From Deltaproteobacteria bacterium (GTDB lineage Bacteria; Desulfobacterota; Binatia; UBA1149; CAYXZP01), in assembly GCA_046583395.1 (NCBI GenBank), contig JAYGCK010000079.1, forward strand, positions 1-63,296: a stretch of 63,296 bases of DNA, read 5' to 3'. Shown piece by piece: positions 10,131-40,075 of this stretch. The first letter of the stretch is position 1, and each line of letters opens with the position of its first letter. The position numbers were made by a program, and so were the translations under genes. The notes beneath the pieces were generated by a model. It did not search any database and was not told the DNA's origin. It was given only the letters and a program-made list of their open reading frames with translations.

Positions 10131-11173
10131 ACGATAAGGCCGCAACCATCGAAAGCGATCCGGTAAGCCCGCTTCGTTCGCCCGACGACAGCAGCGGCGA
10201 GGCCGGGCTCAGGCCTATCACCCTTGCCGAGTACGTTGGCCAGGCGCATCTGTGCGACAATCTGTCAATCGCTATCGAAGCGGCGCGCGGACGGGGTGAG
10301 ACCCTCGACCATGTGCTGCTTTCCGGTCCGCCTGGACTGGGCAAGACCTCGATGGCCCATGTCGTGGCGACCGAACTGGGGACGGGCATTCACCAGACCA
10401 GCGGACCGGTCATAGAGAAGGCCGGCGATCTTGCGGCGATACTGACCGCGGTCGAGCGCGGTCAGGTCCTGTTCATCGACGAGATCCACCGGCTCGGGCG
10501 TATCGTCGAGGAGATTCTGTATCCGGCCATGGAGGAGTTCCGCATAGACATAGTCGTGGGCGAGGGGCCCTCGGCGCGTTCGATCTCGCTCGACCTGGAA
10601 CCCTTCACCCTGGTGGGTGCCACCACCAGGGCCGGCCTGCTGACAGCTCCGCTGCGTTCGCGATTCGGGCACGCGTTCGCCCTCGAGTATTACGAGACCG
10701 AAGAGCTGCAACGCATTGTCGAGCGCTCGGCCTCGCTTCTCGGTGTCGGGCTCGACCGCGAGGCGGCCGTCGAGATTGCCGGGCGTTCACGGGGGACCCC
10801 GCGGATAGCCAACCGTCTGCTCAGACGTTTGCGCGACTATGCGGAGGTCAAGGCCTCGGGCCGCATTACCACCGAGGTCGTAGGCTTCGGGCTCGAGATG
10901 CTGGGCGTTGATGAGGCGGGTTTCGACAACATGGACCGCCGTCTGATCTCGGCGATTATCGACAAGTTCGACGGGGGACCGGTGGGGCTCGACACCCTTG
11001 CCGCCGCGGTCGGCGAGGATGCCGGCACCCTGGAGGAGGTCTACGAGCCCTATCTTCTGCGCATCGGCTTCATCCAACGCACCGCGCGCGGGCGCGTGGC
11101 CACCCGCCATGCCTACGAACACTTCGGGCGTAAGCCGCCGGGCGACGGCACCCAGCCCGTTCTTTTCGAGTGA
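10127..11173 (+). CDS. ruvB: Holliday junction helicase RuvB
   Basis: Walker [40 protein letters not shown]. Confidence 0.98.
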
Positions 11174-13368
11174 GCGGTCTGCCCGACGACGAACGGCGGC
11201 GCCGCCGGCGAGAGGCCATGGTCATATTGGCCGCCGGTCTGGCGGTCCTGGTGTTTACCGTGTGGGAAGCGCGCCGTCCGGGCGACGAGACAGCGCTGGG
11301 CAACGTCTTCTCCTTCCTGCTGATCAACCTCAACATCGTTCTGCTGCTGGTCCTGGTCTTCCTGGTCCTACGTAACGTCGTAAAGCTCATCATCGAACGC
11401 CGGCGCCGTGTGATGGGAAGCCATCTGCGCAGCCGACTGGTCGCCGCCTTCGTGGTAATCTCGCTGTTCCCGGCCGGTGTCATGGCCCTGGTGTCCGTGC
11501 AGTTCATCAGCAACAGCATCGACGGCTGGTTCAGTGCCGAGGTCGAGTCCTCGTTGAGGGGGGCGCACCGTCTTGCCGCGACCTATTACGGTAGTTCCGC
11601 CGACCAGGCGGTTGTGCACGCGCGCGCTATCGCCGGGCGCTTGGACGGGACCGAGGACCAGTCCAGCCCGGGCACCAAGGAGATGCTCCGGGACTACCAA
11701 CAGACCTACGGAATCGGCACGGTGCAGGTGGTCGATGACCAGGGCCGCCAGGTTCTGGCCTTGTTCAACGAAAAGCTCCCGACCGGGGTCCCGGTGAGCA
11801 CCGACCTCGAGTTCATTGACGAAACACTGGAAACGGGCACAGCCACCCGCGTCGAAAGTCTCGGTACTGCCGATGTCATACGCGGCGCGGCTCCAATCCT
11901 GTCGGCCGGCGGCGGCCGGGCCGTGGTCATAGTCGATTACGTCGTCGATCCGAGTGCCAGGCTCTGGAGCCGCTCCATCCTCGATTCCTTTAGGCAGTAT
12001 CGTCAACTCGAGCTCAACAAACGGCCCTTCAAGAACCTCTATGTCCTGACCATGGGCTTGGCCACGTTGGTCGTGGTCTTTTCGGCCGCCTGGTTGGGGC
12101 TATATCTGGCCCGCGGCATCACCGGTCCGCTCGGCCGCCTGGCCGACGCGACCAACGCGGTTGCCGGGGGCAAGTGGGACGTGGAACTCCAGGAGGAGGG
12201 TGGCGACGAGGTCGGGGCGGTGGTTCGCGCGTTCAAGAGCATGACCATGCAACTCAAGGCTAGTCACGACGCCCTTGACGAACGGCGTCGTTACATCGAA
12301 GCCGTTCTTGCCAACATCGATGCCGGCGTGGTCTCGGTCGACGAGGAAGGCGTGATAACCACCGTCAACCTGGCTGCGATGACGCTGCTTTCGCTCGACC
12401 CCGCCGGTGTGGTTGGCCAGAAGGCGGAGCCCGTGTTCGATGCCTGCGGTTACGGCGAGGTCGCCGGTATGCTCACCGGGCTCGGCAGTGGAGAGACCGG
12501 CGCCAGCCTCAACGTTGAGAACGAGGCGGCCGGCCGGACCTTGGCGGTAACGGCCAGCGGTCTGGTGCGGCGTTCGGGAAAACGCAGCGGATGGATACTG
12601 TTCTTCGAGGATGTTTCGCGATTGGCCGAGGCCCAGCGCACCGAGGCCTGGAAGGAGGTCGCCCGCCGCATTGCCCACGAGATAAAGAACCCGCTTACGC
12701 CGATCCAGCTGTCGGCCCAGCGGATGGGGCGGCGCCTGGCCGGCCGTTTGCCCGCCGAGGATGCCGAGCTGGTCGAGGATTGCATCGGCACGATTATCGG
12801 AGAGGTTGACGAGCTGAAGGGACTGGTAAACGAGTTCTCCCAGTTCACTCGCAGCGGCGGCGGCGACAAGCGGGCGCAGTGTCTCAACCGGGTGGTTGAG
12901 GAGACCCTGCCGCTTTACAGGCAGGCTCACCCCGACATTGCCATGGACTTCAAGGCCGCCGCTGGCCTACCCGAAGTATTGATGAACCGGGAGGCTGTGC
13001 GCCGTGCGCTGGTAAATCTGCTCGACAACGCGGTTGCCGCTCTGGGGCCGGAGCCGGGGGTCGAGCGGCCGTCGGTCCGGCGGATTACGGTGGCCACTCG
13101 CTCGGAACAAGAACTGTCAAGGGTCATTCTCGAGGTCGCCGACACCGGCCCCGGCGTTCCGGCCGAGCAGCGCGCACGCATCTTTGAACCGTACTATTCC
13201 ACCAAGGAAGACGGCACCGGTCTCGGTCTGGCGGTGGTCGCTTCGGTGGCCCAAGACCACCAGGCCTACGTGCGGCTTCATGACAACGCACCAACCGGCA
13301 CTCGGTTCGTCATCGAGTTCCCGGTCGCGAGCGACGAAGGTGACGAGGCGCAGGCGTCACCCGCTTGA
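11170..13368 (+). CDS. ntrY: NtrY-type membrane sensor histidine kinase (TM-periplasmic-TM-HAMP-PAS-HisKA-HATPase)
   Basis: H-box [20 protein letters not shown] (NtrY signature), N-box NLLDNA, G1 DTGPG, F/G2 [16 protein letters not shown]. Multiple N-terminal TM helices and a HAMP segment ITGPLGRL...GGDEVG. Confidence 0.88.
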
Positions 13369-14651
13369 GCTATCCTATGGAGACGATGCAGAAGGTTCTG
13401 ATAGTCGACGACGATGCCGCCGTGCGCGAGACCATCGGCGGGGTGCTGAGCGACGAAGGCTTCGACATCAGTACTGCCGCCAGCGGGGAGGAGGCCCAAC
13501 GGCGGATGTCGGTCGAAACGCCCGATCTCGTGCTGGTCGATGTGTGGATGCCCGACATGGACGGGATTGAGCTTCTGTCGAGGATACGGGGGGCGGGCTC
13601 GAACATGCCCGTCATCGTTGTTTCGGGGCACGGCAGCGTCGAGCTGGCTGTCACCGCCACCCGGCTCGGCGCGGTCGATTTCATCGAGAAGCCCTTTTCG
13701 ATTGAGGGACTCCTGCAATCGGTCAACCGGGCCCTCGGCAAGGCGACCACCGGCACCGGCTCGCGGTCCGAGGTGGCGCCGGCAGACCGTCGCCGGGTAG
13801 GCGATACCGGATTGCTCGTGGCCGAACGGACGGTTGCCAGGAGTGTGACCAGTAGCGGGCTTGGTCTCCATAGCGGCCAGCGCACCGGAATCATCCTCCA
13901 CCCGCTACCGCCCGGCAGCGGAATACGTTTTGGGAGTGTGGCCGGCGAGGGTGTGGTCGAGGCCTCCGTCGACAACGTCGATTCGACCGGCTACGCGACC
14001 ACTTTGTTCAAGGACGGGACGTCGGTGCGTACCGTGGAGCATCTCATGGCTGCTTTGCATGCCTATGGGGTCACCAATCTCCTGGTCAAGGTGGAAGGGG
14101 AGGTGCCCATCCTCGACGGTTCGGCTGTTGAGCTGTGTGCGCTTCTCGACAACGCGGGCATCGAGGACCAGGGCAGCGAAACGCCGGCTGTAGCGGTGGC
14201 CGACCTGGTACGTCTGGAGCCTGGGCCCGATCAGTTCATCGAGGCCAGGCCCTATGACGGGTTGAGGATTACCTACGAGCTTGCCTACCCGGAACCTGTC
14301 GGAGAACAGACCTACTGTTTCGAGTTCGACGGGCCCGGCTCGTTCCGTTCGGAAATCGCGCCGGCCCGCACCTTCGGCTTTGTTGAAGAGATTCGTGCAC
14401 TCGAGCAGGCCGGTCTCGGGCAGGGGGGCCAGCTCGGCAACTTCATTCTCATCGGGGACAGCGGGTTCGTGAACACCGAACTACGATTTCCCGAGGAACT
14501 GGCCCGGCACAAGATTCTCGATCTGATGGGCGACCTGTACCTGCTCGGCGCTCCGCTCAAGGGGCAGTTCCATGCGCGCAAGACCGGCCATACGCACAAT
14601 GTGGAGCTGGCCCGCGCGATTCGGGATTCCTTGCTAGCGAACGGCGCTTAG
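13365..14651 (+). CDS. lpxC: Fusion of an NtrX-type response-regulator receiver domain and UDP-3-O-acyl-GlcNAc deacetylase LpxC
   Basis: aa ~8-125 are REC (VDDD, phospho-Asp59 in DVWMP, SGHG, EKPF). aa ~153-428 are LpxC (ERT, GLGLHSG, TVEHL, EVPILDGSA, ARTFGF, RHKILD, GH). One continuous frame; the start may be TTG 13365 or ATG 13377/13386. Confidence 0.92.
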   Translation: MSYPMETMQKVLIVDDDAAVRETIGGVLSDEGFDISTAASGEEAQRRMSVETPDLVLVDVWMPDMDGIELLSRIRGAGSNMPVIVVSGHGSVELAVTATRLGAVDFIEKPFSIEGLLQSVNRALGKATTGTGSRSEVAPADRRRVGDTGLLVAERTVARSVTSSGLGLHSGQRTGIILHPLPPGSGIRFGSVAGEGVVEASVDNVDSTGYATTLFKDGTSVRTVEHLMAALHAYGVTNLLVKVEGEVPILDGSAVELCALLDNAGIEDQGSETPAVAVADLVRLEPGPDQFIEARPYDGLRITYELAYPEPVGEQTYCFEFDGPGSFRSEIAPARTFGFVEEIRALEQAGLGQGGQLGNFILIGDSGFVNTELRFPEELARHKILDLMGDLYLLGAPLKGQFHARKTGHTHNVELARAIRDSLLANGA

Positions 14652-15479
14652 TTGCGGACGGCTCGCAGCCCCCGAAAGTTGGTAGTGCCGCCAGCCCTCA
14701 GGATCGGCTACGGCTTCGGGCAGGAGGCCTGCAATCATCTTGCCGCGCGGCCTTTCATCGCGGATCCGTACGGCCAGTCGTCCCTCGATCAGCAAGGACC
14801 CCGCCCGCCGGAACACCGTGGCCGCCGGAAGTCGCCATTGGATGCCTTCGGCCTCTGCCGTCGAGCCGTCAAGTACCAGGGCCGGCCCATCGAGGCTGGC
14901 CTCCAGGTCGACGGCGGAAAGCTCGAAAGCGGCTAGGGCGATCGAGCCAGGCCCGGTGCCCGAGAACCTGGCGTTACGGCCTTCAATACTGATTTTGCCT
15001 TCGCGCACGGCCGTTCCGACCGGCCCGCTGCTCTGGCCGCGGCCGATGCCGCGCAGTGCCAGCGCCCCGCCGAAACGACCTTCAAGGTGGCCATGGGACA
15101 GGACGAGGCAACGTTCGGGTTCGACGCCGGTAAAGGTCAGTCCGAAGCGACGGCCACGCTGTAGCTTGCCTCGCCACGAACCACCGCAGGCATCGCCTTC
15201 GATATCGACCCCGCCGCGCAGCCCGAAACCGAGATAGAGGGTGTCGATGCTCATGGTGTCGCTGTTGCGGGCAAGCCGGATGCCCCGCAGCAGGTAGCCC
15301 GGCGGCGACACCGACATCCGCGCAATCTTGGGCCAGCGCGGCTCCACACTTTCGATGGAGGAGGCCACGCCGGCCCTTGCCAGTGCTGTTCTTACCAGGC
15401 GTTCGACAACCAGTTTATGCGGAAAGGTCCAGACGAAGCAGACGATGGTAAGCGCCACGAACAGCGCGGGCCGCCTCAC
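14634..15479 (-). CDS. gspN: Type II secretion system protein GspN-like
   Basis: N-terminal TM ending in WTFP, last gene after gspM in a C-to-M cluster. Assigned largely by position. Confidence 0.6.
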   Translation of the reverse strand: MRRPALFVALTIVCFVWTFPHKLVVERLVRTALARAGVASSIESVEPRWPKIARMSVSPPGYLLRGIRLARNSDTMSIDTLYLGFGLRGGVDIEGDACGGSWRGKLQRGRRFGLTFTGVEPERCLVLSHGHLEGRFGGALALRGIGRGQSSGPVGTAVREGKISIEGRNARFSGTGPGSIALAAFELSAVDLEASLDGPALVLDGSTAEAEGIQWRLPAATVFRRAGSLLIEGRLAVRIRDERPRGKMIAGLLPEAVADPEGWRHYQLSGAASRPQLSAVR

Positions 15480-27864: not shown

Positions 27865-29109
27865 ATGTCCTGGGAGCTTTTCGCCGGGATGCGCTACTTG
27901 CGTTCCAGGCGCCGTGAGGCCTTCGTCTCGGTCATAACCGCGATTTCGGTGATGAGCGTACTGGTCGGCGTGATGGTGCTGACCGTGGTGCTGGCCGTAA
28001 TGACCGGGTTCGAGGAGGACCTGCGTGACCGTATCCTCGGGCTCCATCCGCATCTGCGCGTGACCAGCCCGTTCGGCGGTTCGGTCGAGCCCGAACTCGA
28101 CCGCCTGTTGGCCGAGGTCGGCGGGCACCAGGACGTGGTCGAGGCCGCTCCCGTACTCGGCGGACAGTACATGGTGCGCTCGGGTGAGGCGATGGCCGGT
28201 GTATACGGCCGCGGCGTGGACCCGGCGCGCAACGGCAGCACCTCGGGGGTCGCGCCATTCGTGGTCGAGGGTGCGGCGGCTGCACTTGCCGGCCGCCACA
28301 GTTTCAAGGGAGCGATGCTCCCCGGCCTTATGATCGGCCGTGAACTAGGCCGGCGTTTGGGTCTCGAGCTAGGCGACGTGGTGACCCTGATGGCCCCCGG
28401 TGCCAGCCCGAGTCCGCTCGGACTTTTGCCCAGGAGCAAACGTTTTGTGGTCGTGGCCGTCTATGACTCGGGGATGGCCGAATACGATGCCGGATTGGTC
28501 TATCTCAACATCGACGATGCCGGCCGTCTGCTGGGGGAGGGCGGCGGGCAAAAGGGCATAGAGGCCACCACGACGGACCCCTATCAGGCACCCAGGATAG
28601 CGCGTGAGCTCAACGCCGCGCTCGGGATGCCCTATTGGGTGGAGAGTTGGACCGAGGTCCATCGTAACGTGTTCGAGGCCCTGGCCTTGGAGAAGACGGT
28701 CTACTTCTTGGTGCTGATGCTCATCGTCCTGGTGTCCGCGTTCACGATAGTGGCATCCCTTTATATGGTCGTGATGGAGAAACGGCGCGACATCGCCGTG
28801 CTCAAGGCCATGGGCGCAGCCGACGGCAGCGTGGCACGTATCTTTCTCTACAAAGGTCTGGCGGTCGGTCTGTTCGGCACCGTGGCGGGCGTGCTGTTCG
28901 GGTACCTCCTTTGTTTGGGCCTCGACCGCTATGAGTTCATCGACCTGCCGACCGGCGTGTTCTACGTATCGACCCTGCCGGTGCGCATAGTGCCCGGCAA
29001 CTTTATAGTAGTCGCCGCCGCTTCGTTCTTGGTTTGCCTGGCGGCCTGTCTGTTCCCGGCCTGGAAGGCGGCGCGTGTCGTGCCGGCCGATGTGCTTCGT
29101 TATGAGTAA
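27865..29109 (+). CDS. lolE: Lipoprotein-releasing ABC transporter permease (single LolC/E/F-type subunit)
   Basis: RYLRSRRREAFVS, VMTGFEEDLRDRILG, MVVMEKRRDIAVLKAMGA, PAWKAA. Adjacent to lolD. Confidence 0.92.
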   Translation: MSWELFAGMRYLRSRRREAFVSVITAISVMSVLVGVMVLTVVLAVMTGFEEDLRDRILGLHPHLRVTSPFGGSVEPELDRLLAEVGGHQDVVEAAPVLGGQYMVRSGEAMAGVYGRGVDPARNGSTSGVAPFVVEGAAAALAGRHSFKGAMLPGLMIGRELGRRLGLELGDVVTLMAPGASPSPLGLLPRSKRFVVVAVYDSGMAEYDAGLVYLNIDDAGRLLGEGGGQKGIEATTTDPYQAPRIARELNAALGMPYWVESWTEVHRNVFEALALEKTVYFLVLMLIVLVSAFTIVASLYMVVMEKRRDIAVLKAMGAADGSVARIFLYKGLAVGLFGTVAGVLFGYLLCLGLDRYEFIDLPTGVFYVSTLPVRIVPGNFIVVAAASFLVCLAACLFPAWKAARVVPADVLRYE

Positions 29110-29809
29110 CGGCAGCTCCCGGGCTGAACCTGCGGTGCTCGAAGCGCGAGGGATTGGCCGGCGTTTTGGGCACAATCCCCCGCTCGTGGTCCTGGGCGGC
29201 CTCGACCTCACAGTGGAGGGGGGGCAGAGCGTGGCCGTATTGGGCGAGTCGGGGGTGGGCAAGAGCACCCTGCTGCACGTGCTTGCCGCCATTGATCCGG
29301 CCGACGAGGGTGATGTTCTCGTCGAGGGCCGCTCCCTATCCGAAATGACGGGTTCGGAACTGGCCCATATGCGCAGCCGCTCGATAGGACTGATCTTTCA
29401 GTTCCACAATTTGCTTGGCGATTTTGACGCGGTCGAGAACGTGATGCTGCCGTTGCTGGTCGGCGGCCAGGGGCGTGCTGTTGCGCGCCGGCGGGCCCTG
29501 GAGGCCCTCGATCAGGTCGGTCTTAGCGAGCGGATGTCGCACCGTCCTGGCCAGCTCTCGGGCGGCGAACAACAACGCGTGGCGGTGGCCCGCGCGGTGG
29601 CCGTCCGCCCCCGGCTGCTCCTGGCCGATGAGCCCACCGGGAACCTCGACCCGGCCTCGGCCGCGAGGGTGCACGAACTGCTCCTTGAGGTGCAGGCCGA
29701 ACTGGCCTGTGCGCTGGTGGTGGCCACACACAGCACGGCTCTGGCCGGCCTCATGCAACGCTCGCTGCGTCTGGCCGGCGGCCGTCTTTCCGAAGAGGCT
29801 TCTGCGTGA
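29102..29809 (+). CDS. lolD: Lipoprotein-releasing ABC transporter ATP-binding protein
   Basis: Walker [40 protein letters not shown] at 29102. Confidence 0.93.
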
Positions 29810-32127
29810 GGCGGGGCTTGGTATTGGCCGTACTTGCGGTCCTTGCCGCGCCCCTCGTTGCCGAGGCCGGCCGTTCGGTTGCCAAGGTCCGCTTGGAGGG
29901 CAATTCCCGGGTCGAGGCTGCGGCTATCCGCGTGCACATCGGTCAGCCCACCGGTGCTCCACTCGACGAGGACCGCATCGACCGCGATATCAAGGCCATC
30001 TACGGCATGGGCTTTTTTGACGACGTCTGGGTCAGCACCAAGCCTTCGCCGCAGGGCCCGGTGCTCGTTTATCACGTAAAAGAACGTCCCTACGTGACGG
30101 GTATCGAGTTCGAGGGTATCGACAAGGTTATCCGTGAGGACGTCGAAGCGGTCATCAACGTTCGCGAACGGAACGTATTCGATCCCCGGCAGGCTTGACT
30201 GGGCATCCAGCAGGCGCGCAAGCTCTACACCAGCGAGGGTTATCCCGACGCATCTATCGAGTACGAGCTACGGCCGGGCGAGGACAACACCGCCGAGATT
30301 GTCTACTCGATCGAAGAGGGTCCGTTGGTTCGCGTGGCCGACATACGTTTGGAGGGGGTTCGCGTCTTCAAGCAGCGGGCGCTTCGCAAGCTCATGACCA
30401 CACGCAGCGAATGGATGTTGTCGTGGCTTACCGGGGCCGGGCTGCTCAACGAGGACGAACTTGCCACCGACGTTGAGCGCCTTACCGCCTACTATTACGA
30501 TAACGGTTACATTCATGTCCGGGTCGACGAGCCTTTCATCGAACGGGTCGACGACGGAATGGTGGTCACCATCCGTATCGAGGAGGGGCCGCTCTTCAAG
30601 ATTGGAGAGATAACCTTTGCCGGCCAACTCCTGCTCCCCGAAGACCGGCTGCTGGCCATAAGCCGGCTTACGGCGGGCGGCGTGTTTAGGGCCAGCGAGT
30701 TGCGCGAGGCGATATTCGCCTTGACCGAGGCATACGGGGACCTGGGCCACGCCTTTGCCGATGTGGTTCCCGGCACCCGGGTACGGGCCGAGGACGAAGA
30801 GGTCGATATCGCGTTCGAATTCGACGGCGGCCCCGTTGTCGCCGTTCGCCGCATTGAGATACGCGGCAACACCAAGACCCGTGACCATGTCGTTCGCCGC
30901 GCACTGCGACTGCAGGAGGGGCAGCGCTTTTCCGGGTCGGGACTGACCCGCTCGAAGGTCCGCATACAGCGAAGCGGCCACTTTGAAACGGTCGAACTTT
31001 CGACCAAACGGACCGGGACCGAAGACGAGGTCGACCTGCTGGTCGAAGTCAAGGAGGGCCGGACCGGCTCCTTTTCGGCCGGCGCGGGCTACAGTTCGGA
31101 CGACGAGGTGTTGTTCAATGCGCGAATCGCCGAGCGCAATCTGTTCGGTCGTGGACAGTCGCTGGTCGTTAACACCGACATGGGCACGATACGGCAGAAC
31201 TTCCAGTTCTCCTTCACCGAACCCTGGTTCGGCGGCCGCCCGCTCAGCCTCGGCTTCGACCTGTTCGACTGGCAGTTGGAGTTCGACCGCTTTGTGCGTG
31301 GTGGCCGCGGCTTTGCCGTGCGGCTGTCCTACCCGCTCGAGGAACTGGGGCTGTACCGGCTCGCCCGCCTGTCGCTGCGCGATGTGCGGGCAGGCATAGA
31401 ATATCGCCTCGAGGAGAGCGAGATTGACGGCATCCGGCGGGCGGCCCCACCGAGCGTTAAAGCGGAGGAGGGCGCGCGGATGACCAGCAGCGTGAAGCCG
31501 GTCATCACCCGCAACACGCTCGACCATCCCTTCGACCCTACCCGGGGGTCGCGGCAGATTCTGTCGGCCGAGTTTGCCGGGCTGGGCGGCGATACCGACT
31601 TTCTTAAAATAGAGGCCAGCAGCCGCTGGTTCTGGCCAGTCTATGCGACCAAGGCCGGCCGCCGCTTGGTCCATTCGCTGGGTGTCCGGCTGGGGTTCGG
31701 GCTCGGCGATAGCGGGGCCAGCGGGGAAGAGCTGCCGTTGTTTAAGCGCTATTTCCCGGGCGGGATTAACTCGGTTCGGGGCTACGATACTCGCAGCCTC
31801 GGCCCCGAGGAGGAATTTCGCGAAGACGACGGGGTCAGCTACGTCAAAGAGGCGATAGGGGGAAGCCAGCAGCTCATCATTACCAACGAGCTCATATTTC
31901 CGGTCCTGGCCGATGCCGGGCTCAAGGCCGTAGTGTTTGTAGATGCCGGCAACGCGTTCACCGCATCGGGCGGTATAGACCTAGGGGACCTCAGGTACGC
32001 CGCGGGTTGGGGCATACGTTGGTTGTCACCAATGGGACCGCTGCGTATAGAGGTGGGCTACCCGCTCGACCCCAAGGACGGCGAGGACTCGAGTATCGTC
32101 CAGTTCTCTCTGGGTGCACCGTTCTGA
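29806..32127 (+). CDS. bamA: Outer membrane protein assembly factor BamA, interrupted by one in-frame TGA at 30196-30198
   Basis: Track ORFs 29806-30198 and 30325-32127 are in the same frame, and the sequence between them is open ([15 protein letters not shown]). Signal peptide, POTRA repeats ([12 protein letters not shown]), NLFGRGQ, VRGY loop-6 motif, terminal Phe. 773 codons in total. Confidence 0.93.
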
Positions 32128-32141
32128 AAAAGGGAGACCGT

Positions 32142-32675
32142 ATGAGAAAGACCGCCGCTTCGATTCTGACGCTGTTTGTTCTTGCCGCATTGCCGGTGGC
32201 CGGGGCGTCAGCCGCCGATCTCAATATAGGCTATATAATGGTTCCCCGCTTGCTTGCCGAGACCAAGTTTGGTCAGGCCGCAGCCCGGGAACTGCAAGGC
32301 AAGAAAGCATCGATGCAGAAGGAGCTCGATAGTAAACTGGCCGAGATCAAGGACTTTGAGGCCGATGTGCGCAAACGTGCGACCGTGTTGAGCGAACAGG
32401 AGCGCAAACGCGCGGCCGAAGAGCTTGAACGGCAGATGCGCGAGGCCAAGCGTCTTCAGGAGGATTTCCAACTCAGCCTGCAGCGCACCGAGACTGCCGT
32501 TATGGGCCGCTTTAACCGCCAATTCCAGAAAATCATCCGTGCCTATGGTGCCGACAAGAACTACGACCTTGTGCTCGACTATTCGGTCCTGCTTTACGCG
32601 TCCTCGACGCCTGATATCACCGATGCCGTGATTGCCGAGGCGGACAAAGCCTTCGAAGCAGGGGAGGGCCGCTAG
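32142..32675 (+). CDS. skp: Periplasmic chaperone Skp/OmpH
   Basis: Signal peptide, coiled-coil body, C-terminal YDLVLD...LLYA...DITDAVI. AGGGAG SD before ATG 32142. Confidence 0.9.
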   Translation: MRKTAASILTLFVLAALPVAGASAADLNIGYIMVPRLLAETKFGQAAARELQGKKASMQKELDSKLAEIKDFEADVRKRATVLSEQERKRAAEELERQMREAKRLQEDFQLSLQRTETAVMGRFNRQFQKIIRAYGADKNYDLVLDYSVLLYASSTPDITDAVIAEADKAFEAGEGR

Positions 32676-32678
32676 CTC

Positions 32679-33458
32679 TTGGCCGACGGCATCCACGCGA
32701 CCGCAATCATCTCCAAGGAGGCCCGGCTCGCTCGGGATGTGAGAGTGGGCCCCTATTCCGTTGTAGGGGCCGGGGTCGAGATTGGGGCCGGCTGCTCGTT
32801 GGGCTCACAGGTGACCGTTGAAGGCCCGACCAGTATCGGCGAGAATAACAGCATCTTCCAGTTCGCGAGTATCGGTGCGCCGCCCCAGGACCTCAAGTAC
32901 GCCGGTGAGGACACCCGCCTGGAGATCGGCACGGGCAATACGATTCGGGAGTTCGCTACACTCAACCGTGGGACCGTTGGGGGAGGTGGGACGACGCGGG
33001 TCGGAGATAACTGCCTGTTGATGGCCTACTCGCACGTCGCCCATGACTGCACGCTCGGTGACGGTGTGGTTATGGCCAATGCTGCCACCTTGGCCGGCCA
33101 CGTGACGATAGAGGACTACGGCATAGTTGGTGGTCTTGCCGCTATCCACCAGCATGTCAGGATAGGGAGTTCGGCCATTCTTGGCGGCGGCGCGATGGTC
33201 AGTCTTGACGTTCCGCCTTTCTGCATGGCTGCGGGGGACAGGGCTCGTCTCCAGGGACTCAACGTTGTCGGGCTCAAGCGGCGCGGCCTCTCCAGGGATT
33301 CGATACGTAAGTTGCGCAAGGCCTACCGCACTCTGTTCCAATCCTCTCTCAGGCTCAGCGATGCCGTGGCCGAGCTTGCCCACGACCGCAGCTCGAGTTC
33401 GGAGGTTGGCCAGCTCCTCGACTTCGTCGAGTCCTCCGAGCGTGGGATCTGTCGCTGA
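32679..33458 (+). CDS. lpxA: UDP-N-acetylglucosamine acyltransferase
   Basis: IHATAII, hexapeptide repeats, PQDLKY, IREFATLNRGT, HVAHDC, HQHVRIG, GLNVVGLKRRG. Confidence 0.96.
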   Translation: MADGIHATAIISKEARLARDVRVGPYSVVGAGVEIGAGCSLGSQVTVEGPTSIGENNSIFQFASIGAPPQDLKYAGEDTRLEIGTGNTIREFATLNRGTVGGGGTTRVGDNCLLMAYSHVAHDCTLGDGVVMANAATLAGHVTIEDYGIVGGLAAIHQHVRIGSSAILGGGAMVSLDVPPFCMAAGDRARLQGLNVVGLKRRGLSRDSIRKLRKAYRTLFQSSLRLSDAVAELAHDRSSSSEVGQLLDFVESSERGICR

Positions 33459-33471
33459 GGACGGATGCCTG

Positions 33472-34281
33472 ATGGAACTTATCGGTCTCATCGCCGGTAA
33501 CGGTGGTTTCCCGCTGACCTTTGCGCGAGAGGCTCGTAGGCGGGGGTTTCGCGTGGCGGCCGTTGCCCACCACGACGAGACCGATCCGGCGCTCGAGGCC
33601 GAGGTTGACTCGGTCACTTGGGTGCGAGTCGGCCAGCTCGGCAAGCTCATCGGTGCGCTCAAGGCCGGCGGTGTCGAGCGTACGGTCATGGCTGGCGGCA
33701 TCAACAAGGCCCGCTCGCTGCTTTCGCTCCGGCCCGATGCCCGTGGGGCCAAGGCGCTGGCCCGTGCCGCGGTGCTCGGTGATGATAATATTCTTCGCGC
33801 GGTAGCCGACGAGATCGAGCAGGAGGGAATCTCCGTGATTCCCTCGACGATTTTTCTCGAGAGCCTTCTAGCTCCCGCCGGTCCCATCGCGGGTCCGGCA
33901 CCGAGTCCCGAGGCGCTCGAGGATGTGAACCGTGGTTTTGAACTACTCACCGTGCTCGGTCCCCACGACGTTGGCCAGGGTGTGATGTTGGAGTCCGGGG
34001 CCGTGCTGGCCATAGAGGCCGTAGAGGGAACCGATGCGATGATTTGCCGTGGCGCGGCGTTCGCCAAGGGCCAAGCCGTGGTGGTCAAGGCGGCCAAAGC
34101 GGGCCAGGACATGCGCTTTGATGTTCCTGCGGTGGGTCCGCAAACCCTGGCGGCGATGTCCGAGTCCGGTGCCGGCACATTGGCCATCGAGACCGGCAGC
34201 AGCATCATTCTTGACCGCGCGGCCTTCGACCAACAGGCCGCCGGGCTAGGGATAGCCGTGATAGGCGTTACAAATGACTGA
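33472..34281 (+). CDS. lpxI: UDP-2,3-diacylglucosamine pyrophosphatase LpxI (DUF1009)
   Basis: IGLIAGNGGFP, VRVGQLG, DVGQ, AIEAVEGTD, KAGQDMRFDVPAVG. ATG at 33472. Confidence 0.9.
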   Translation: MELIGLIAGNGGFPLTFAREARRRGFRVAAVAHHDETDPALEAEVDSVTWVRVGQLGKLIGALKAGGVERTVMAGGINKARSLLSLRPDARGAKALARAAVLGDDNILRAVADEIEQEGISVIPSTIFLESLLAPAGPIAGPAPSPEALEDVNRGFELLTVLGPHDVGQGVMLESGAVLAIEAVEGTDAMICRGAAFAKGQAVVVKAAKAGQDMRFDVPAVGPQTLAAMSESGAGTLAIETGSSIILDRAAFDQQAAGLGIAVIGVTND

Positions 34282-35218
34282 ACGCTTGCGTGTCGGGGTC
34301 ATCGGGGTTGGCCATCTCGGACGGCTCCACGCCGAGAAGTATCACGCCCACGGCGGCGTCGAACTTGTCGGTGTCTATGACAGTGACCGACAACGGGCCG
34401 CCGAGGTGGCGGCCGCACAGGAATGCCGGGCGCCGGAAACGTTGGATTCCCTGCTCGCCGGTGTAGATGCGGTCAGTATTGCGGTGCCGACTGCGGCTCA
34501 TCTGGAAACCGGACTGAGGGTGGCCGCCGCGGGCGTCGATATGCTGATGGAAAAGCCCATGGCGGCCGGTTCAATCGAGGCCAAACGCTTGGCCGATGCC
34601 GCGGCCGGGAAGGGGGCCTTGGTGCAGGTCGGCCATCTTGAACGCTTCAACCCGGTGTTCGACGAGATGCGCGCGCTGGTCTCGGAGCCGAAGTTCATCG
34701 AATGCCATCGTCTGTCGCCCTTTGCGGGGCGTGGCGATGACACCAACGTTGTCTATGATGTGATGATTCATGACCTCGACATCATTTCCTTGCTGGCCGG
34801 CGCCGCTGTCGAAAGTGTTGATGCTATTGGCGTGCCGGTGCTAAGCGAGCACGCTGACATCGCCAACGCACGGCTACGGATGCAGGGCGGTTGCACGGCC
34901 AACGTGACCGCGAGCCGTGTGTCGTTAAAGCGGGAACGAAAGATGCGCATATTTCAGGAGGACGCCTACGTCTCTCTCGACTTCGATTTGCGCAACATGG
35001 TGATGGCCCGCCGTGACCCCGGGGCCGCCGGGCCGGACCCGATGTCGGCGATTTCCATCGAAGAGCGTGACCTCGAGGACGGCGACCCGCTGGCCCGCCA
35101 GATCGCGGCTTTCATAGAGTGCGTCGTTACCCGACGGCCGCCCGCTGTCGGACCGGCCGAAGGCATCGCGGCCCTCGAGCTTGCCGACCGGGTGTTGGCT
35201 GCGATGGGGGCTCCCTGA
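34274..35218 (+). CDS. Gfo/Idh/MocA oxidoreductase, GnnA-like (UDP-GlcNAc 3-dehydrogenase candidate)
   Basis: GVIGVGHLG Rossmann motif, EKPM, VGHLERFNP, DVMIHDLD. Its position between lpxA/lpxI and lpxB is the characteristic gnnA position. Confidence 0.75.
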   Translation: MTERLRVGVIGVGHLGRLHAEKYHAHGGVELVGVYDSDRQRAAEVAAAQECRAPETLDSLLAGVDAVSIAVPTAAHLETGLRVAAAGVDMLMEKPMAAGSIEAKRLADAAAGKGALVQVGHLERFNPVFDEMRALVSEPKFIECHRLSPFAGRGDDTNVVYDVMIHDLDIISLLAGAAVESVDAIGVPVLSEHADIANARLRMQGGCTANVTASRVSLKRERKMRIFQEDAYVSLDFDLRNMVMARRDPGAAGPDPMSAISIEERDLEDGDPLARQIAAFIECVVTRRPPAVGPAEGIAALELADRVLAAMGAP

Positions 35219-35222
35219 GCCC

Positions 35223-36350
35223 TTGGCGGGCCGCCGCGTAATGATGGTCGCCGGAGAGGCCTCCGGCGATGCGCAGGCGGCCAAGCTGGCCGCTGCCATG
35301 CACAAGCGCGACCCAAACCTCGAAATTTTCGGGGTAGGGGGTCCGGCCATGCGCCGTGCGGGCGTAGATACCCGATTCGATTCGACGGAGCTGTCCATCA
35401 TGGGCTTTACCGAGGCGCTTGGCGCCCTGGCCCGGGTCAGACGCTGCTATCGCCATCTCAAGGAAACGCTTCGCGGCCCCGGCCGTCCCGACCTTCTCGT
35501 GTTGATCGATTTTCCCGACTTCAACATACCCTTGGCCGGCGTTGCGAGCCGGACCGCAGTTCCGGTGCTCTACTATGTTGGGCCGCAGGTCTGGGCATGG
35601 CGCCGTGGGCGGATTGCCAAGCTGGCACGCCGGATCGACCGAATGATAGTGGTCTTTCCCTTCGAGGCCGAGCTGTACCGGGCACGGGGCATGGACGCGC
35701 ACTTCGTCGGCAATCCGCTCGCCGAGGACGTCAGGCCCAGCGGCCGTGAGGGCGCACTGGCCGGCCTTGGGACCGATGACGAACGTCCCCTGGTTGCGTT
35801 GCTGCCCGGCAGCCGCCGTAAGGAGGTCACCCGGGTCTTACCGGTCATGCTCGAGGCCGCCCGAGCGCTCGAGGACCGGGCCCGCTTTGCCATTGCCGCC
35901 GCCCCAGGCCTCGACCGGAGACTTCTCGAAGCTCTGGTCGGGCACAGTGGCGTGGAAGCGCCTATAATAGGGGGGGAGACATACGACCTGGTCGCGGCCA
36001 GCCGGGCGGTCGCGGTGACCTCGGGTACGGCGACCGTCGAGTGTGCGCTGCTGGGCACGCCGATGGTGGTGCTCTACCGGATGTCCGCGCTTTCCTACTT
36101 GGTGGCGCGTAGCCTGATCGATGTTCCCCATATGGCGATGCCCAACATCATTCTCGAGGAAAGAGCGGTTCCCGAGCTGTTACAGGGAGAGCTGACCGCC
36201 GACCGCCTCTGCGCCGAGTTGAGCCGTCTTCTCGAGGGCGGACCGGCGATTGACCGTTTGCGTGAGAAATTGGCCACCGTGCGCGACCGCCTGGTGCGCC
36301 CCGGGGCCGCCGCCGAGGCGGCCCGCCTGGCCTTGGAGTTGCTGCCGTGA
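35223..36350 (+). CDS. lpxB: Lipid-A-disaccharide synthase
   Basis: VAGEASGD, IDFPDFN, YYVGPQVWAWR, FPFE, LLPGSRRKE, SGTATVE, MPNII, VPELLQ. Likely TTG start at 35223. Confidence 0.96.
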   Translation: MAGRRVMMVAGEASGDAQAAKLAAAMHKRDPNLEIFGVGGPAMRRAGVDTRFDSTELSIMGFTEALGALARVRRCYRHLKETLRGPGRPDLLVLIDFPDFNIPLAGVASRTAVPVLYYVGPQVWAWRRGRIAKLARRIDRMIVVFPFEAELYRARGMDAHFVGNPLAEDVRPSGREGALAGLGTDDERPLVALLPGSRRKEVTRVLPVMLEAARALEDRARFAIAAAPGLDRRLLEALVGHSGVEAPIIGGETYDLVAASRAVAVTSGTATVECALLGTPMVVLYRMSALSYLVARSLIDVPHMAMPNIILEERAVPELLQGELTADRLCAELSRLLEGGPAIDRLREKLATVRDRLVRPGAAAEAARLALELLP

Positions 36351-38083
36351 GCGGCACCAGCACGGGCCGGCGCTTGCTGGCCTATCTCCGGCCTTACGTG
36401 TGGCCCTATTTCGTTGGCGCGTTGCTGTGCATGACCGCTTACAGCGCGACCGCGGGCATCGTGCCCTTTCTTGTCCACAGCTTGGTCGACAAGGTTTTTC
36501 AAGCCGGCGACAACTCGGTGTTGCGGATACTTCCGGCCGTCATTGCCGCGACCTTTGTCGTCCGTGCGGCGGTCAACTTCGGACAAGCCTATCTCGGCGA
36601 GTACGTCGGCCAACACATAGTCTTCGACCTCAGGCGCGGGCTCGACGAGCATATCCAGCATCTCCCGATAGCCTACTTCGACAAGGTGGCTAGCTCGGGG
36701 ATACTCTCGCGAGTTACGACCGACGTCCTGCTGGTTCGCGAGGCCTTGACCGAAGGTGTGGCCGCGATGATTCGCGACACGACCACCGTGCTGGTGCTCC
36801 TGGTCGTGGCTCTCTACCTCGACCACGTGCTTGCCTTCGTTACCCTGGTGGTCTTTCCGAGTGTGGTCCTGCCTCTGCAGAGACTGTCACGGCGGATGCG
36901 ACGGCTCAGCCGCGAAGGGCTCGATACGCTGGGAGCGCTTGCCGCTCTCCTGCAAGAGACCATTCTCGGCAACCGGGTTGTAAAGGCCTTTGGCATGGAG
37001 GGCTACGAAAAAGCGCGGTTCAGCGCCGAGAACACCCGCTTGCTCGGACTGTACATGCGGGCGGCCAAGATCAAGGCCTTCACCACGCCGCTGATGGAAG
37101 TTGCGGCCGCCGTGGGCATTGCCGCAACACTATGGATCGGGGGGGCATCGGTCATCGGCGGAGAGAGAACCGCGGGCGATTTCATGGCCTTCATTACGGC
37201 CCTGGTGCTGCTCTACGAACCGTTCAAGAAGGTGGTTCGCACCAACAATATCCTGCAGACCGGTCTTGGTGCGGCCGAGCGTATCTTTGAGCTGATGGAC
37301 ATCGAGCCCGAGCCGGCCGGCCTGGGCGGGAGCAGGCTTGGGGGTTTTTCAGGAGGGATTCGCTTCGAGGGTGTGAGCTTCGCATACGGTGAGGAGCGCG
37401 TGGTCCACAACGTCGACCTCGAGTTGGCCGCCGGGCAAACGCTGGCGCTGGTCGGACCGAGCGGAGGTGGCAAGAGCACTCTGGCCGATCTCATCCCGCG
37501 CTTTTACGAAGTGGACTCGGGCCGGATTACCATAGACGGCCGGGACCTGCGCGAGATTGAGACGGCGTCCTTGCGCGGACTGATGTCGGTGGTCACGCAG
37601 TTTACCTTCCTTTTCAATGATTCGGTTCGTAACAACATCGCCTACGGAAGGCCTGGCACCGCCGACGAGGACGTGGTCGAGGCGGCAAAGGCGGCCAACG
37701 CCGACGAGTTCATTCGCGGCCTGCCCCGGGGGTACGACACGGTCGTGGGGGAACTCGGGGTGCAGCTGTCGGGCGGGCAGAGACAACGCGTCGCGATTGC
37801 GCGTGCGCTGCTCAAGAACGCGCCCATACTCATACTCGACGAGGCCACCAGCGCGCTCGACAGTGAGTCCGAGCGTCTGGTGCAGGCCGCGGTAGAGGCG
37901 TTGATGGAAGGCCGGACAACGCTCGTCATTGCCCATCGCTTTTCGACGGTGAGGCGAGCCGACCGCATCGCCGTTATCGCCGGGGGAAGGGTAATCGAAT
38001 CCGGGACGCACGAAGAGCTGCTTGAGGGGGGCGAGGTCTACAAGCGTCTTCACGACATGCAGTTCCGGGACGACGCGCCCTGA
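36347..38083 (+). CDS. msbA: Lipid A flippase MsbA (ABC transporter)
   Basis: Six-TM domain, GPSGGGKST, LSGGQRQR, ILDEATSALD, IAHR. Embedded in the lpx cluster. Confidence 0.9.
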   Translation: MSGTSTGRRLLAYLRPYVWPYFVGALLCMTAYSATAGIVPFLVHSLVDKVFQAGDNSVLRILPAVIAATFVVRAAVNFGQAYLGEYVGQHIVFDLRRGLDEHIQHLPIAYFDKVASSGILSRVTTDVLLVREALTEGVAAMIRDTTTVLVLLVVALYLDHVLAFVTLVVFPSVVLPLQRLSRRMRRLSREGLDTLGALAALLQETILGNRVVKAFGMEGYEKARFSAENTRLLGLYMRAAKIKAFTTPLMEVAAAVGIAATLWIGGASVIGGERTAGDFMAFITALVLLYEPFKKVVRTNNILQTGLGAAERIFELMDIEPEPAGLGGSRLGGFSGGIRFEGVSFAYGEERVVHNVDLELAAGQTLALVGPSGGGKSTLADLIPRFYEVDSGRITIDGRDLREIETASLRGLMSVVTQFTFLFNDSVRNNIAYGRPGTADEDVVEAAKAANADEFIRGLPRGYDTVVGELGVQLSGGQRQRVAIARALLKNAPILILDEATSALDSESERLVQAAVEALMEGRTTLVIAHRFSTVRRADRIAVIAGGRVIESGTHEELLEGGEVYKRLHDMQFRDDAP

Positions 38084-38093
38084 GCCGGCGGAT

Positions 38094-38786
38094 ATGCTGA
38101 GGCGACTGCGACGCAACGCGCGCTTTGCGCGGGCCGAGATAGCCGTGCTCGGCTCTTTGGCGCTGGGCCTGATGCGTTTTCTCAGGATGACGACCCGGAT
38201 GACCGTGCACAACGGCGAAGTTCTCGAGGAAAACTGGCGGCGCGGCCGCGCGATGGTCTTCGTGAGCTGGCACGGCCGTTCGATCATGTTGCCGTTCACG
38301 TATCGGGGGCACAGTGTTCACATACTCAACAGCACCCATCGTGACGGCCAGATTATCACGCGCGCTCTACTGCGACTGGGCATGAAGACCTCGCCGGGTT
38401 CGTCGACCCGGCGTGCGATAGCCGGTACCCTCGGTCTGGTCCGCGCGCTGGCCGCCGGCGGCGATGTCGCACTTGTTACCGACGGGCCCCGCGGTCCGGC
38501 CGGCGTGGCCAAGCCCGGTGCGGTCGAGTTGGCGATGAGGGCAGGGGCGCCGGTCGTGCCCATGGCCTTTAGCGCCAGACCGGCGCTGCGCTTGAGCGGG
38601 TGGGACCGGATGATGCTCCCGGTCCCGGGCGGCAAGGTCGTCTGTGTGGTCGGTGAACCGATAGAGGTCGGCAAGGGCCGCGACCCGGTCCTGCGCGAGT
38701 CCTTGCGTGCCGAGGTCGAGCGAAGACTGGCCGAGCTGTGCCGCCACGCCGACCGGCTTGCCGGTAGACCCGAAGAGCCGGTATGA
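38094..38786 (+). CDS. DUF374 lysophospholipid-acyltransferase-family protein (LpxJ-like late lipid A acyltransferase candidate)
   Basis: SWHG, STHRDG, GSSTR, VTDGPRGP...KPG, WDRMMLP. Lies between msbA and waaA; ATG at 38094. Confidence 0.75.
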   Translation: MLRRLRRNARFARAEIAVLGSLALGLMRFLRMTTRMTVHNGEVLEENWRRGRAMVFVSWHGRSIMLPFTYRGHSVHILNSTHRDGQIITRALLRLGMKTSPGSSTRRAIAGTLGLVRALAAGGDVALVTDGPRGPAGVAKPGAVELAMRAGAPVVPMAFSARPALRLSGWDRMMLPVPGGKVVCVVGEPIEVGKGRDPVLRESLRAEVERRLAELCRHADRLAGRPEEPV

Positions 38787-40075
38787 GCGGACCGGAGCGA
38801 GCCAGGGGTGCTGTGGCGAGTCTACAGGCGGCCGCTTATCGCGGGGCTGCAGCTTGGGTGCTTCTCTATCATCGAGTGGCGGCCGGCTTGGGCGATGAAC
38901 CGCGCCGGACCCGCTACTCCGAACGTTTGGGACGATGGGCCGGGTTCGAGGCCTCGGCCGGGCCTCTGGTGTGGGTCCACGCGGCCTCGGTCGGCGAGGT
39001 CGCGGTCGCGGCCGTTCTGATTGGCGGACTGCGGCGGACGCGCTCCGGCCTCCGCGTCCTTTTGACCTGCAACACCGCTACCGGTCGTGCGGCCGCCCAA
39101 ACAGCGGGTGCCGACGAGACACGCTACCTTCCCCTCGACCACCCGCGAATCGTTCGTGCGGTCATTGAGCGGGTCTGTCCCACACTGTTCATCTTCGTGG
39201 AGACCGAGATATGGCCCCATCTCCTGGCCGAGCTCGGACGACGCGGCATTCCCAAGGTGATGGTCAACGCACGTATATCCGAGCGCAGCTATCTGCGTTA
39301 CCTACGGGTGCGCGCCATGCTTCGTGGAGCGCTTGGCGGGGTCGAGCTGTTCTGTGTTCGCGACCCGGAGTCGGCTGCACGCCTGGAGCGGCTCGGTGCG
39401 TCGGCCCAACGCTTGCTGACGACCGGTGATATGAAGTTTGATGCCATCGAGGAGGCCGGCTCGGAGGACCTGCTCGGTCCTCTCGCCGGCGGCGACGCGG
39501 TCGTGGTCGCGGCTTCGACCAGGGAAGGTGAGGAGGCGCTCTTGCTCGAGGCCTTCGCGCCGTTGGCGGGCCAGGGCTTGCGCCTGGTCTTGGCCCCTCG
39601 CCATCCCGAACGAGCTCGGGCCGTCTCTCGTCTTGCCATCGAACGTGGTCTCAGGGTGCTGGCTTGGAGCACGGCGGTCGGGACCGGGGAGCAGCCGGTA
39701 TCGCAATGGCAGGTGCTCGTAGTCGATAGCGTCGGCCAGTTGCGTGGTTTTATGAAGGCCGCTCGCGGTGTTTTCGTGGGCGGGACCTTGGTGCCGGTCG
39801 GCGGACACAATCTCCTTGAGCCCGCCTCTTTCGGTGTCCCGGTCGCCGTTGGCCCTCATCTGGCCAACGTCCGCTCCCAGGCCGCGTCCTTGGCGGCCAA
39901 CGATGCGCTTTCGGTCGTCGATGGCCCCGAGGCGCTTTCCGCGCTCTGGGTCGATTGGTTGGCCCGTCCCGAGATGGCTCGTGCCAACGGGCGGCGCGCC
40001 CTCGAGGTGGTAGAGCAGGGCAGGGGGGCGCTAAAACGGACGCTGGAGGCGCTGACTCCCTACCTGGGGGCATGA
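38783..40075 (+). CDS. waaA: Kdo transferase
   Basis: WVHAASVGEV, YLPLD, ETEIWP, NARIS...Y, GDMKFD, LAPRHPER, GGHNLLEPA. Confidence 0.95.
   Translation: MSGPERARGAVASLQAAAYRGAAAWVLLYHRVAAGLGDEPRRTRYSERLGRWAGFEASAGPLVWVHAASVGEVAVAAVLIGGLRRTRSGLRVLLTCNTATGRAAAQTAGADETRYLPLDHPRIVRAVIERVCPTLFIFVETEIWPHLLAELGRRGIPKVMVNARISERSYLRYLRVRAMLRGALGGVELFCVRDPESAARLERLGASAQRLLTTGDMKFDAIEEAGSEDLLGPLAGGDAVVVAASTREGEEALLLEAFAPLAGQGLRLVLAPRHPERARAVSRLAIERGLRVLAWSTAVGTGEQPVSQWQVLVVDSVGQLRGFMKAARGVFVGGTLVPVGGHNLLEPASFGVPVAVGPHLANVRSQAASLAANDALSVVDGPEALSALWVDWLARPEMARANGRRALEVVEQGRGALKRTLEALTPYLGA

Follow-up and report, generated by a model that had tools for sequence, protein, structure and literature searches.

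In the stretch of DNA analysed here (63,296 nucleotides of contig JAYGCK010000079.1, assembly GCA_046583395.1, from a deltaproteobacterium of the GTDB class Binatia; hereafter the window), a gene on the forward strand (13365–14651) encodes a protein in which the receiver (REC) domain of a response regulator is joined, through a polar linker, to LpxC, the UDP-3-O-acyl-GlcNAc deacetylase of lipid A synthesis. The gene is a single open frame of 428 codons counted from a TTG, which shares four nucleotides (TTGA) with the stop codon of the gene of an NtrY-type sensor histidine kinase located immediately upstream (11170–13368, +).

The receiver–LpxC gene, the adjacent kinase and the genome

The Pfam scan places the Response_reg domain (PF00072) at residues 11–120 (13395–13724, +; E 6.5e-32, 110 bits for a cut-off of 30.2) and the LpxC domain (PF03331) at residues 155–419 (13827–14621, +; E 5.8e-81, 272 bits for a cut-off of 27), the latter covering positions 2–266 of the 268 of the profile; with the NCBIfam lpxC equivalog TIGR00325, whose cut-off is 187, the protein scores 240 bits. 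Between the two domains lies a polar linker (residues ~125–150; 13737–13814, +) that is unconserved in its alignment columns and predicted by AlphaFold2 (AF2) to be disordered. The first-pass annotation of the window had described an uninterrupted 428-codon frame holding a complete receiver, a linker of ~25 residues and a full LpxC with its Zn ligands and catalytic Glu, a description borne out by Pfam, by NCBIfam and by an alignment with Pseudomonas aeruginosa LpxC, all the residues that it had named being found at the positions given. In the receiver, which is NtrX-like, these are D15, D16 and D17, the predicted phospho-acceptor D59 within DVWMP (codon 13539–13541, +), S87 within SGHG and K109 within EKP; in the enzyme they are H226 within VEHL, H382 and D386 within HKILD, and H409. 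The catalytic set as a whole comprises E225, H226, T336, H382, K383, D386, D390 and H409, with the codons of the catalytic Glu225 and of the Zn ligand His226 at 14037–14042 (+), HKILD with the Zn ligands His382 and Asp386 plus Lys383 at 14508–14522 (+), and the codon of His409, matching the conserved C-terminal His of LpxC, at 14589–14591 (+). E225/H226, T336, H382/K383/D386 and H409 align to the P. aeruginosa LpxC motifs TVEHL, ARTFGF, HKILD and SGH, respectively.

Over 121 clusters of related fusion proteins (55–97% identity), D15, D16, D59, K109, E225, H226, T336, H382, K383, D386, D390 and H409 are invariant (D59 being D in 121/121) and position 87 is S in 120 and T in one, while the identity of the linker columns 125–150 is just 0.16–0.4. 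Invariant residues in both domains, combined with a drifting linker, argue that both halves are under selection for their standard chemistry. Residues 1–7 are without counterpart in the relatives, which align only from about residue 8 onward, and a GGAG stands 3 nt upstream of the ATG of M8 (13386–13388, +); because of this, the true start is more likely the ATG at 13386, or that at 13377, than the TTG at 13365, a choice that would leave both domains unaffected.

The receiver had been assigned to the NtrX type on the basis of its motifs, and the profile and structure matches agree: NtrX is its top NCBIfam model (RssB being among the weaker receiver matches), its nearest solved structures are those of Brucella NtrX (4d6x and 5m7n) and the kinase upstream carries an NtrY_N domain. 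The match to the NtrX model NF051870 amounts to 131 bits over the receiver part only, under an equivalog cut-off of 600, and the Pfam and NCBIfam scans found neither an AAA+ nor a helix-turn-helix (HTH) domain in the fusion protein, which is best regarded as NtrX-derived, yet not an NtrX. In the same manner, the model of the LpxC-FabZ fusion, NF009667, gives 187 bits over the LpxC part only, for a cut-off of 465, and there is no FabZ domain.

The kinase has 732 residues and the Pfam domains NtrY_N, HAMP, PAS, HisKA and HATPase_c, NtrY_N (PF19312) being matched with 29.8 bits for a cut-off of 23.2. According to a hydropathy scan its N-terminus contains four hydrophobic segments and an extracytoplasmic loop of ~175 residues, from about residue 112 to about residue 291; the H-box His is residue 503. 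No other kinase of the genome matches across the NtrY N-terminal sensor part. Furthermore, an orthologous kinase is found directly upstream of the fusion gene at 17 of 29 related loci, and from this adjacency we infer that kinase and fused receiver are cognate.

The genome (2.13 Mb in 131 contigs, 98.7% complete, 63.5% G+C) contains exactly one LpxC match, which is the fused gene. A search of the genome for a second lpxC and for an intact ntrX, as suggested by the first-pass annotation, yielded neither: there is no separate NtrX and the three sigma-54 activators present are ordinary ones, without an NtrX-like paralogue among them, the nearest other receiver of the genome being part of a FixJ/LuxR-type regulator. 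Other genes of lipid A synthesis are at hand, those of the Raetz pathway found in the window being lpxA, lpxI, lpxB, waaA and lpxK. They belong to a cluster that lies ~18 kb downstream of the fusion gene, after bamA–skp, and that has no lpxC inside; in the Pfam scan it consists of lpxA, lpxI, a GFO/IDH/MocA oxidoreductase, lpxB, an MsbA-like ABC exporter, DUF374, waaA and lpxK (32679–41088, +). Since the fused gene is the sole LpxC match and lipid A genes are present, the organism makes lipid A and has to rely on the fusion protein at the deacetylation step. To judge from these sequence data, this protein serves as the organism's housekeeping LpxC and has the build of a response regulator derived from NtrX, with the enzyme as output domain.

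Some additional features of these neighbourhoods may be mentioned. After bamA, the genes along 32007–41088 (+) follow one another as skp (OmpH), lpxA, lpxI and so forth up to lpxK and, finally, an NAD-dependent epimerase; the bamA region shows as two frames, 29075–29809 and 30325–32127. The presence of lpxI implies that the cleavage of UDP-2,3-diacylglucosamine falls to LpxI and not to LpxH. The GFO/IDH/MocA oxidoreductase inside the cluster recalls GnnA of the GlcN3N-lipid A route, for which it might be a candidate. On the other side, a convergent type II secretion operon begins directly after the fusion gene, its first gene (14634–15479, −) encoding a protein of 281 residues without Pfam match; a counterpart (284 and 269 residues) is kept at the same place in relatives, before the type II secretion genes M, L, K, J, I, H, G, F, E and D.

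Spread, forms and origin of the fusion

The reality of the fusion and its spread were assessed in a search of 5.8 billion proteins, with assemblies from NCBI, JGI, ENA and Logan. At least 120 clusters among the best matches, 55–97% identical to the window protein, all combine PF00072 and PF03331, and a 97%-identical protein is present in other assemblies. The fusion is found in all six sampled genomes of the window's class, and two other contigs keep the gene order ruvC–ruvA–ruvB–ntrY–REC_LpxC with the convergent type II secretion operon behind it, one of 88 kb at 70% identity and one of 365 kb, which bears the label Candidatus Binatia, at 63%. Taxa are named here and below as the submitters labelled them (Binatia, Deltaproteobacteria, Myxococcales, Thermodesulfobacteriota, Nitrospinota). 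A contig search with the fusion as query was dominated by the NtrX receivers of Sphingomonadales (DVWMPDMD pattern) and returned five fusion loci. Because many independent assemblies share the architecture, the fusion is no chimera, and the initial concern that it might be private to this genome, or a misassembly absent from its relatives, is set aside.

Within the phylum, 201 genomes were sampled. The query matched across both domains in 24 of them, and in another 23 its LpxC part was matched inside open frames of 450–837 aa; seven of these 23 frames were read directly (four long and three medium forms, see below), the other 16 being assigned by frame length and family only. The fused gene is the sole LpxC match in 44 of the 47 fusion-bearing genomes (33 genera); of the remaining three, one owes its second match to a break of that gene at the end of a contig, and the other two carry a stand-alone copy in addition. 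In Nitrospinota a long form occurs in 28 of the 33 sampled genomes, the open frames being mostly of 674–868 aa, and in the one genome checked it is the only LpxC. Thus, the statement of the first-pass annotation that LpxC is normally a stand-alone enzyme does not hold everywhere, the fused form being the rule in the window's class and nearly so in Nitrospinota.

The fusion occurs in three lengths. Besides short forms such as the window protein, there are medium forms (three read, ~445–460 aa), in which a helical linker of 40–60 residues connects REC to LpxC, and long forms (four read, ~700–740 aa), which consist of REC, Sigma54_activat, AAA_lid_14, a helical segment and LpxC. The N-terminal 452 residues of a long form cover positions 3–452 of the 452 of the NtrX model, which with 282 bits, under its cut-off of 600, is the top activator model. 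Walker A is conserved in the long forms and the Walker B and GAFTGA regions are not; the equivalents of D15, D16, D59, S/T87 and K109 are conserved in 118 long forms as well. Directly before LpxC, the AF2 model of the long form has three helices (residues 406–449) with a predicted local distance difference test score (pLDDT) of 83–93, as would be expected for an HTH of the Fis type. A second large search gave at least 120 long-form clusters, some of which are named NtrX by JGI and others LpxC, and in the long forms, too, an NtrY-type kinase lies directly upstream. Two kinds of apparent variants were discarded. Frames of 1000–1400 aa in three relatives, seemingly kinase–REC–LpxC chains, are an artefact of high G+C content, since the kinase ends in another frame just upstream, and the AAA+-LpxC proteins lacking a receiver (P0230, P0237 and others) are truncated gene calls that start inside the receiver (…FLEKPFS).

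In a maximum-likelihood tree of 98 LpxC domains, including 20 stand-alone LpxCs of the same phylum, all the fused domains form one clade (SH-aLRT 99), apart from the 20 stand-alone enzymes. The window protein falls among 34 rows that form a clade, 30 of them short and 4 medium forms; five medium forms from three families nest within the long-form clade (support 97). Seven rows inside the fused clade that seemed to be unfused proved to be truncated gene calls and not stand-alone LpxCs. As the tree does not resolve the root within the fused clade, the direction of the changes is read mainly from the full-length match of the NtrX model to the long form; likewise, a receiver tree of 119 columns was too poorly resolved to place the fused receivers with respect to NtrX, so that their ancestry is derived from the profile matches and from the long forms. 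Taken together, these data point to a probable single event in which LpxC was joined to the C-terminal end of an NtrX-like protein, the AAA+ and HTH modules being lost afterwards at least twice and the window lineage apparently having kept only the receiver of the NtrX part. The initial suggestion that the output of an NtrX had been replaced by LpxC is therefore supported as far as the NtrX origin is concerned, but not as a simple swap: LpxC was probably appended first and the AAA+/HTH part lost later.

The flanks of the 20 stand-alone lpxC genes of the phylum offer a further indication. In eight of them, from eight families, an ntrY is located 0.25–1.3 kb downstream on the same strand, and the sensor part of these kinases is 28–49% identical to that of the fused-type kinases; a complete NtrX-like gene follows ntrY in five of the eight loci. 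Because ntrY, and also ntrX, adjoins an unfused lpxC in this manner, the association of NtrY/NtrX with lpxC predates the fusion and extends beyond it. Two of the eight are from genomes with a fused copy elsewhere, and there ntrX does not follow ntrY; these genomes could illustrate a stage at which the fused protein has become the partner of the kinase, or else one of the two copies could come from bin contamination. Their stand-alone lpxC is very canonical (369–373 bits to Pfam), the contamination of the bins is 1% and 5%, and in one of the two no kinase is adjacent to the fused copy.

Predicted structure and proposed regulation of the fused enzyme

The AF2 model of the short form, built on an alignment of 121 rows, has a mean pLDDT of 84.4 and a predicted template modelling score (pTM) of 0.83; pLDDT is 92–97 over most of REC and falls below 50 at linker residues 128–147. 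Because a pTM of 0.83 exceeds the bound of ~0.65 calculated for the case in which only the 278 residues of LpxC are well placed, the model is taken to dock REC confidently onto LpxC, a judgement based on pTM. The pTM of the long form is 0.53. The Foldseek search gave matches to the LpxC part only; this part matched the LpxCs of Aquifex aeolicus and P. aeruginosa with target-normalised TM-scores of 0.76–0.88 and E ~1e-30, the highest value being that of A. aeolicus, and no solved chain among the matches spans both domains.

Two further traits of the enzyme may be mentioned. Residues 341–370 (~14385–14474) are near-invariant (EEIRALExAGLGQGGQLGNFILIG) and have the lowest AF2 confidence of the LpxC domain (pLDDT 56–63), a dip that recurs at residues ~651–690 of the long form; we take this segment to be in, or next to, the insert lining the acyl-chain passage of LpxC, and it may be a mobile element near this passage. 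Moreover, K242 (E in 16 of 21 stand-alone enzymes), H232–A233–Y234, C258, Y392 and T407 are invariant in the fused clade and are candidates for a contact surface.

Since the phospho-acceptor residues are invariant, a kinase gene is adjacent and the fused protein is the sole LpxC, phosphorylation can be envisaged as a switch. The NtrY-type membrane kinase would phosphorylate Asp59 of the fused receiver, and the phosphorylated receiver would directly alter the catalytic output of LpxC, either through a changed intramolecular contact between REC and LpxC or through receiver-driven dimerisation. In this way a dedicated sensor would adjust, at the level of the protein, how much material enters lipid A synthesis, neither a transcription factor nor adaptor-mediated proteolysis being needed. 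We regard it as reasonably probable that the kinase phosphorylates D59 and thereby switches LpxC activity directly, in one direction or the other; what we infer here is that phosphotransfer takes place and acts on activity rather than on stability, as well as which way the switch works and what signal drives it. The receiver of CheB occludes the catalytic domain until it is phosphorylated, and PleD is activated by dimerisation; the predicted intramolecular docking leans, weakly, to a CheB-like occlusion over a PleD-like dimerisation. By analogy with NtrYX of Rhodobacter sphaeroides, an analogy drawn across phyla and mechanisms, the phosphorylated state could be the low-LpxC state. A wider reading is that NtrY and the receiver–LpxC protein constitute a two-protein lipid A homeostat, in which the extracytoplasmic/membrane module of the kinase reads the state of the envelope or of its lipopolysaccharide (LPS) and the sole LpxC is throttled via D59, the job done in Escherichia coli by YejM–LapB–FtsH; this we consider a tentative proposal, somewhat more apt to prove wrong than right.

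Several points weigh against a phosphorylation switch of this kind, or at least restrict its form. The family is known from sequence alone, and 12 of the 29 related loci, including all those of medium-length forms, lack an adjacent kinase gene. A sole and essential LpxC cannot be turned off completely, so that control should be graded or the default state active. The pTM does not tell occlusion, allostery and dimerisation apart, and an unconserved and, by prediction, disordered linker fits a tether and provides no argument for a rigid element of transmission. Finally, a route of the LapB/FtsH type may coexist with the receiver.

A rival explanation is that the receiver controls the amount of LpxC instead of its activity, phosphorylation exposing or hiding a degron or recruiting FtsH, Lon or ClpXP. 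Proteolysis is the established control of LpxC in E. coli, where Lon also degrades an alphaproteobacterial LpxC when this is expressed (PMC12444477), and receivers can gate proteolysis, RssB being among the weaker models matched here. In addition, the window begins with a gene cut by the contig start (3–875, −) for a membrane protein with two N-terminal hydrophobic helices and tetratricopeptide repeats (TPR), ~12.5 kb away from the fusion gene; its match to LapA_dom is sub-threshold (24 bits for a cut-off of 28), and its position is kept in a relative of the same taxonomic order, the complete homologue (~397 aa) lying ~12–14 kb from the REC-LpxC gene, as here. Although a LapA/LapB-like role in the envelope is conceivable for this TPR protein, it does not qualify as a canonical LapB: it scores 22 bits with the LapB model, whose cut-off is 363, and its complete homologue has neither a rubredoxin nor a CxxC motif. 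The best LapB match of the whole genome (NF008757) reaches 29 bits for the same cut-off, with a model that passes only for E. coli among the controls, and the rubredoxin-type model PF18073 matches the zinc ribbons of RadA, also in Gram-positive controls, and is thus unspecific for LapB. The high pTM, moreover, suggests a defined contact between REC and LpxC, and most response regulators with an enzymatic output are regulated in their activity; control of stability is accordingly rated as unlikely.

An inverse flow of information can also be conceived, with the LpxC domain acting as an input too, the state of its substrate or product feeding back on receiver phosphorylation and reporting the status of lipid A precursors to NtrY/NtrX. 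The existence of lpxC–ntrY–ntrX operons and the predicted three-helix HTH retained directly before LpxC in the long forms, where transcription dependent on the state of the enzyme is plausible, speak for it; on the other hand, the window protein, devoid of AAA+ and HTH, has no downstream output except LpxC, and the invariant catalytic residues of a sole LpxC indicate that catalysis is the selected function, so that we hold this reading to be quite improbable. A shade more improbable still is the possibility that the receiver no longer signals and serves as a constitutive dimerisation or scaffold module, the fusion being a frozen accident. The 12 loci without adjacent kinase would fit this possibility, as would the dimerisation of NtrX receivers (4d6x and 5m7n); yet pseudo-receivers usually lose the residues that D15, D16, D59, S/T87 and K109 represent, and these are kept in the 121 clusters, down to 55% identity, and in 118 long forms, while in the window genome the kinase gene overlaps the fusion gene and its product has no other partner of the NtrX type. 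According to the last alternative, two genes were joined by a chimeric assembly, or by a frameshift or deletion peculiar to this genome; it draws on the prior attached to a metagenome-derived assembly of 131 contigs and is ruled out, with negligible probability left to it, by the near-identical protein and the clusters found elsewhere, the recurrence in all sampled genomes of the class and the synteny on contigs of 88–365 kb.

Relation to known systems

No description of a receiver–LpxC fusion was found in full-text searches of the literature, in keeping with the first-pass annotation, which knew of no characterised protein of this kind; in a review of lipid A regulation published in 2025 in the Journal of Biological Chemistry neither the word "fusion" nor the word "receiver" occurs in the text (PMC12444477). 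The fusion proteins themselves are already in public databases under automatic names, and what this analysis adds is the finding of long and medium intermediates, of one clade for all fused LpxC domains, of a near-universal occurrence in Nitrospinota and of the linkage of lpxC, ntrY and ntrX in unfused relatives. According to the same review, the known controls of LpxC all act via another factor: LapB/FtsH and Lon work by proteolysis, MurA activates the enzyme, a LapB homologue affects its localisation, and NtrYX and ChvGI act on transcription (PMC12444477). If the proposed switch is real, the fused receiver would give this sole LpxC the first known in-cis control by phosphorylation, one used by whole lineages, namely the window's class, many families of its phylum and most of the sampled Nitrospinota. 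The system would also be simple and testable, with one kinase, one enzyme and one aspartate, and would offer a handle on the signal that sets lipid A flux. Should the homeostat exist, it would be an ancient module in three guises, the lpxC–ntrY–ntrX operon, the full NtrX–LpxC fusion (in Nitrospinota and many lineages of the Desulfobacterota type) and the reduced REC-LpxC, and it would explain the envelope and LPS phenotypes of alphaproteobacterial NtrYX mutants. More generally, the fusion series provides a gene-fusion argument that NtrY/NtrX might be, at root, a regulator of the envelope and LPS, which bears on the pleiotropy of NtrYX in alphaproteobacteria.

Among the known systems, NtrY/NtrX is the closest relative. 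The kinase of the window has the NtrY_N–HAMP–PAS–HisKA–HATPase arrangement, the receiver bears the DVWMP, SGHG and EKP motifs, and the long forms, which lack GAFTGA, cover the NtrX model over its full length. Alphaproteobacterial NtrYX, too, targets lpxC and LPS biology (PMC7240162; PMC12444477): in both R. sphaeroides and Caulobacter crescentus it lowers the amounts of lpxC transcript and of LPS (PMC7240162; PMC12444477), and its loss in R. sphaeroides raises the lpxC transcript ~9-fold and LPS ~2-fold (PMC7240162). There, however, lpxC is affected indirectly, through transcription, and as one member of a regulon comprising dozens of genes, whereas the window protein, without AAA+/HTH, has a covalently attached enzyme as its sole output. 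A two-component control dedicated to lpxC is also found in a deltaproteobacterial sulfate reducer, Desulfovibrio vulgaris, where lpxC is the single mapped target of the response regulator DVU2934, whose kinase is DVU2931 (PMC3333781); unlike the fusion, DVU2934 is a DNA-binding, transcriptional regulator, and orthology with NtrX is not stated in that study (PMC3333781).

With the stand-alone LpxCs, which are controlled by LapB/YciM–FtsH with YejM in E. coli, by MurA in P. aeruginosa and by Lon in some alphaproteobacteria, the fusion protein shares the enzyme, its catalytic residues and its fold, as well as the need to balance lipid A synthesis against that of phospholipids and peptidoglycan. 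The control of the fused enzyme, on the contrary, would be exerted in cis, and no canonical LapB is detectable in the window genome with the narrow NF008757 and the unspecific PF18073. The LpxC-FabZ protein of Bacteroidota, represented by the NCBIfam model NF009667, is the one other LpxC fusion that the first-pass annotation names, but its partner is C-terminal and a pathway-related enzyme, unlike the signalling domain that is the partner here. As to the mechanism, the best working model is offered, by analogy, by response regulators of the CheB type with an enzymatic output. CheB itself, PleD and WspR (REC-GGDEF) and RpfG (REC-HD-GYP) share with the window protein a layout in which the receiver comes first and a flexible linker connects it to the catalytic domain at the C-terminus; their output domains are unrelated to that of the fusion, in which the part to be controlled, LpxC, is not a signalling enzyme but an essential biosynthetic one.

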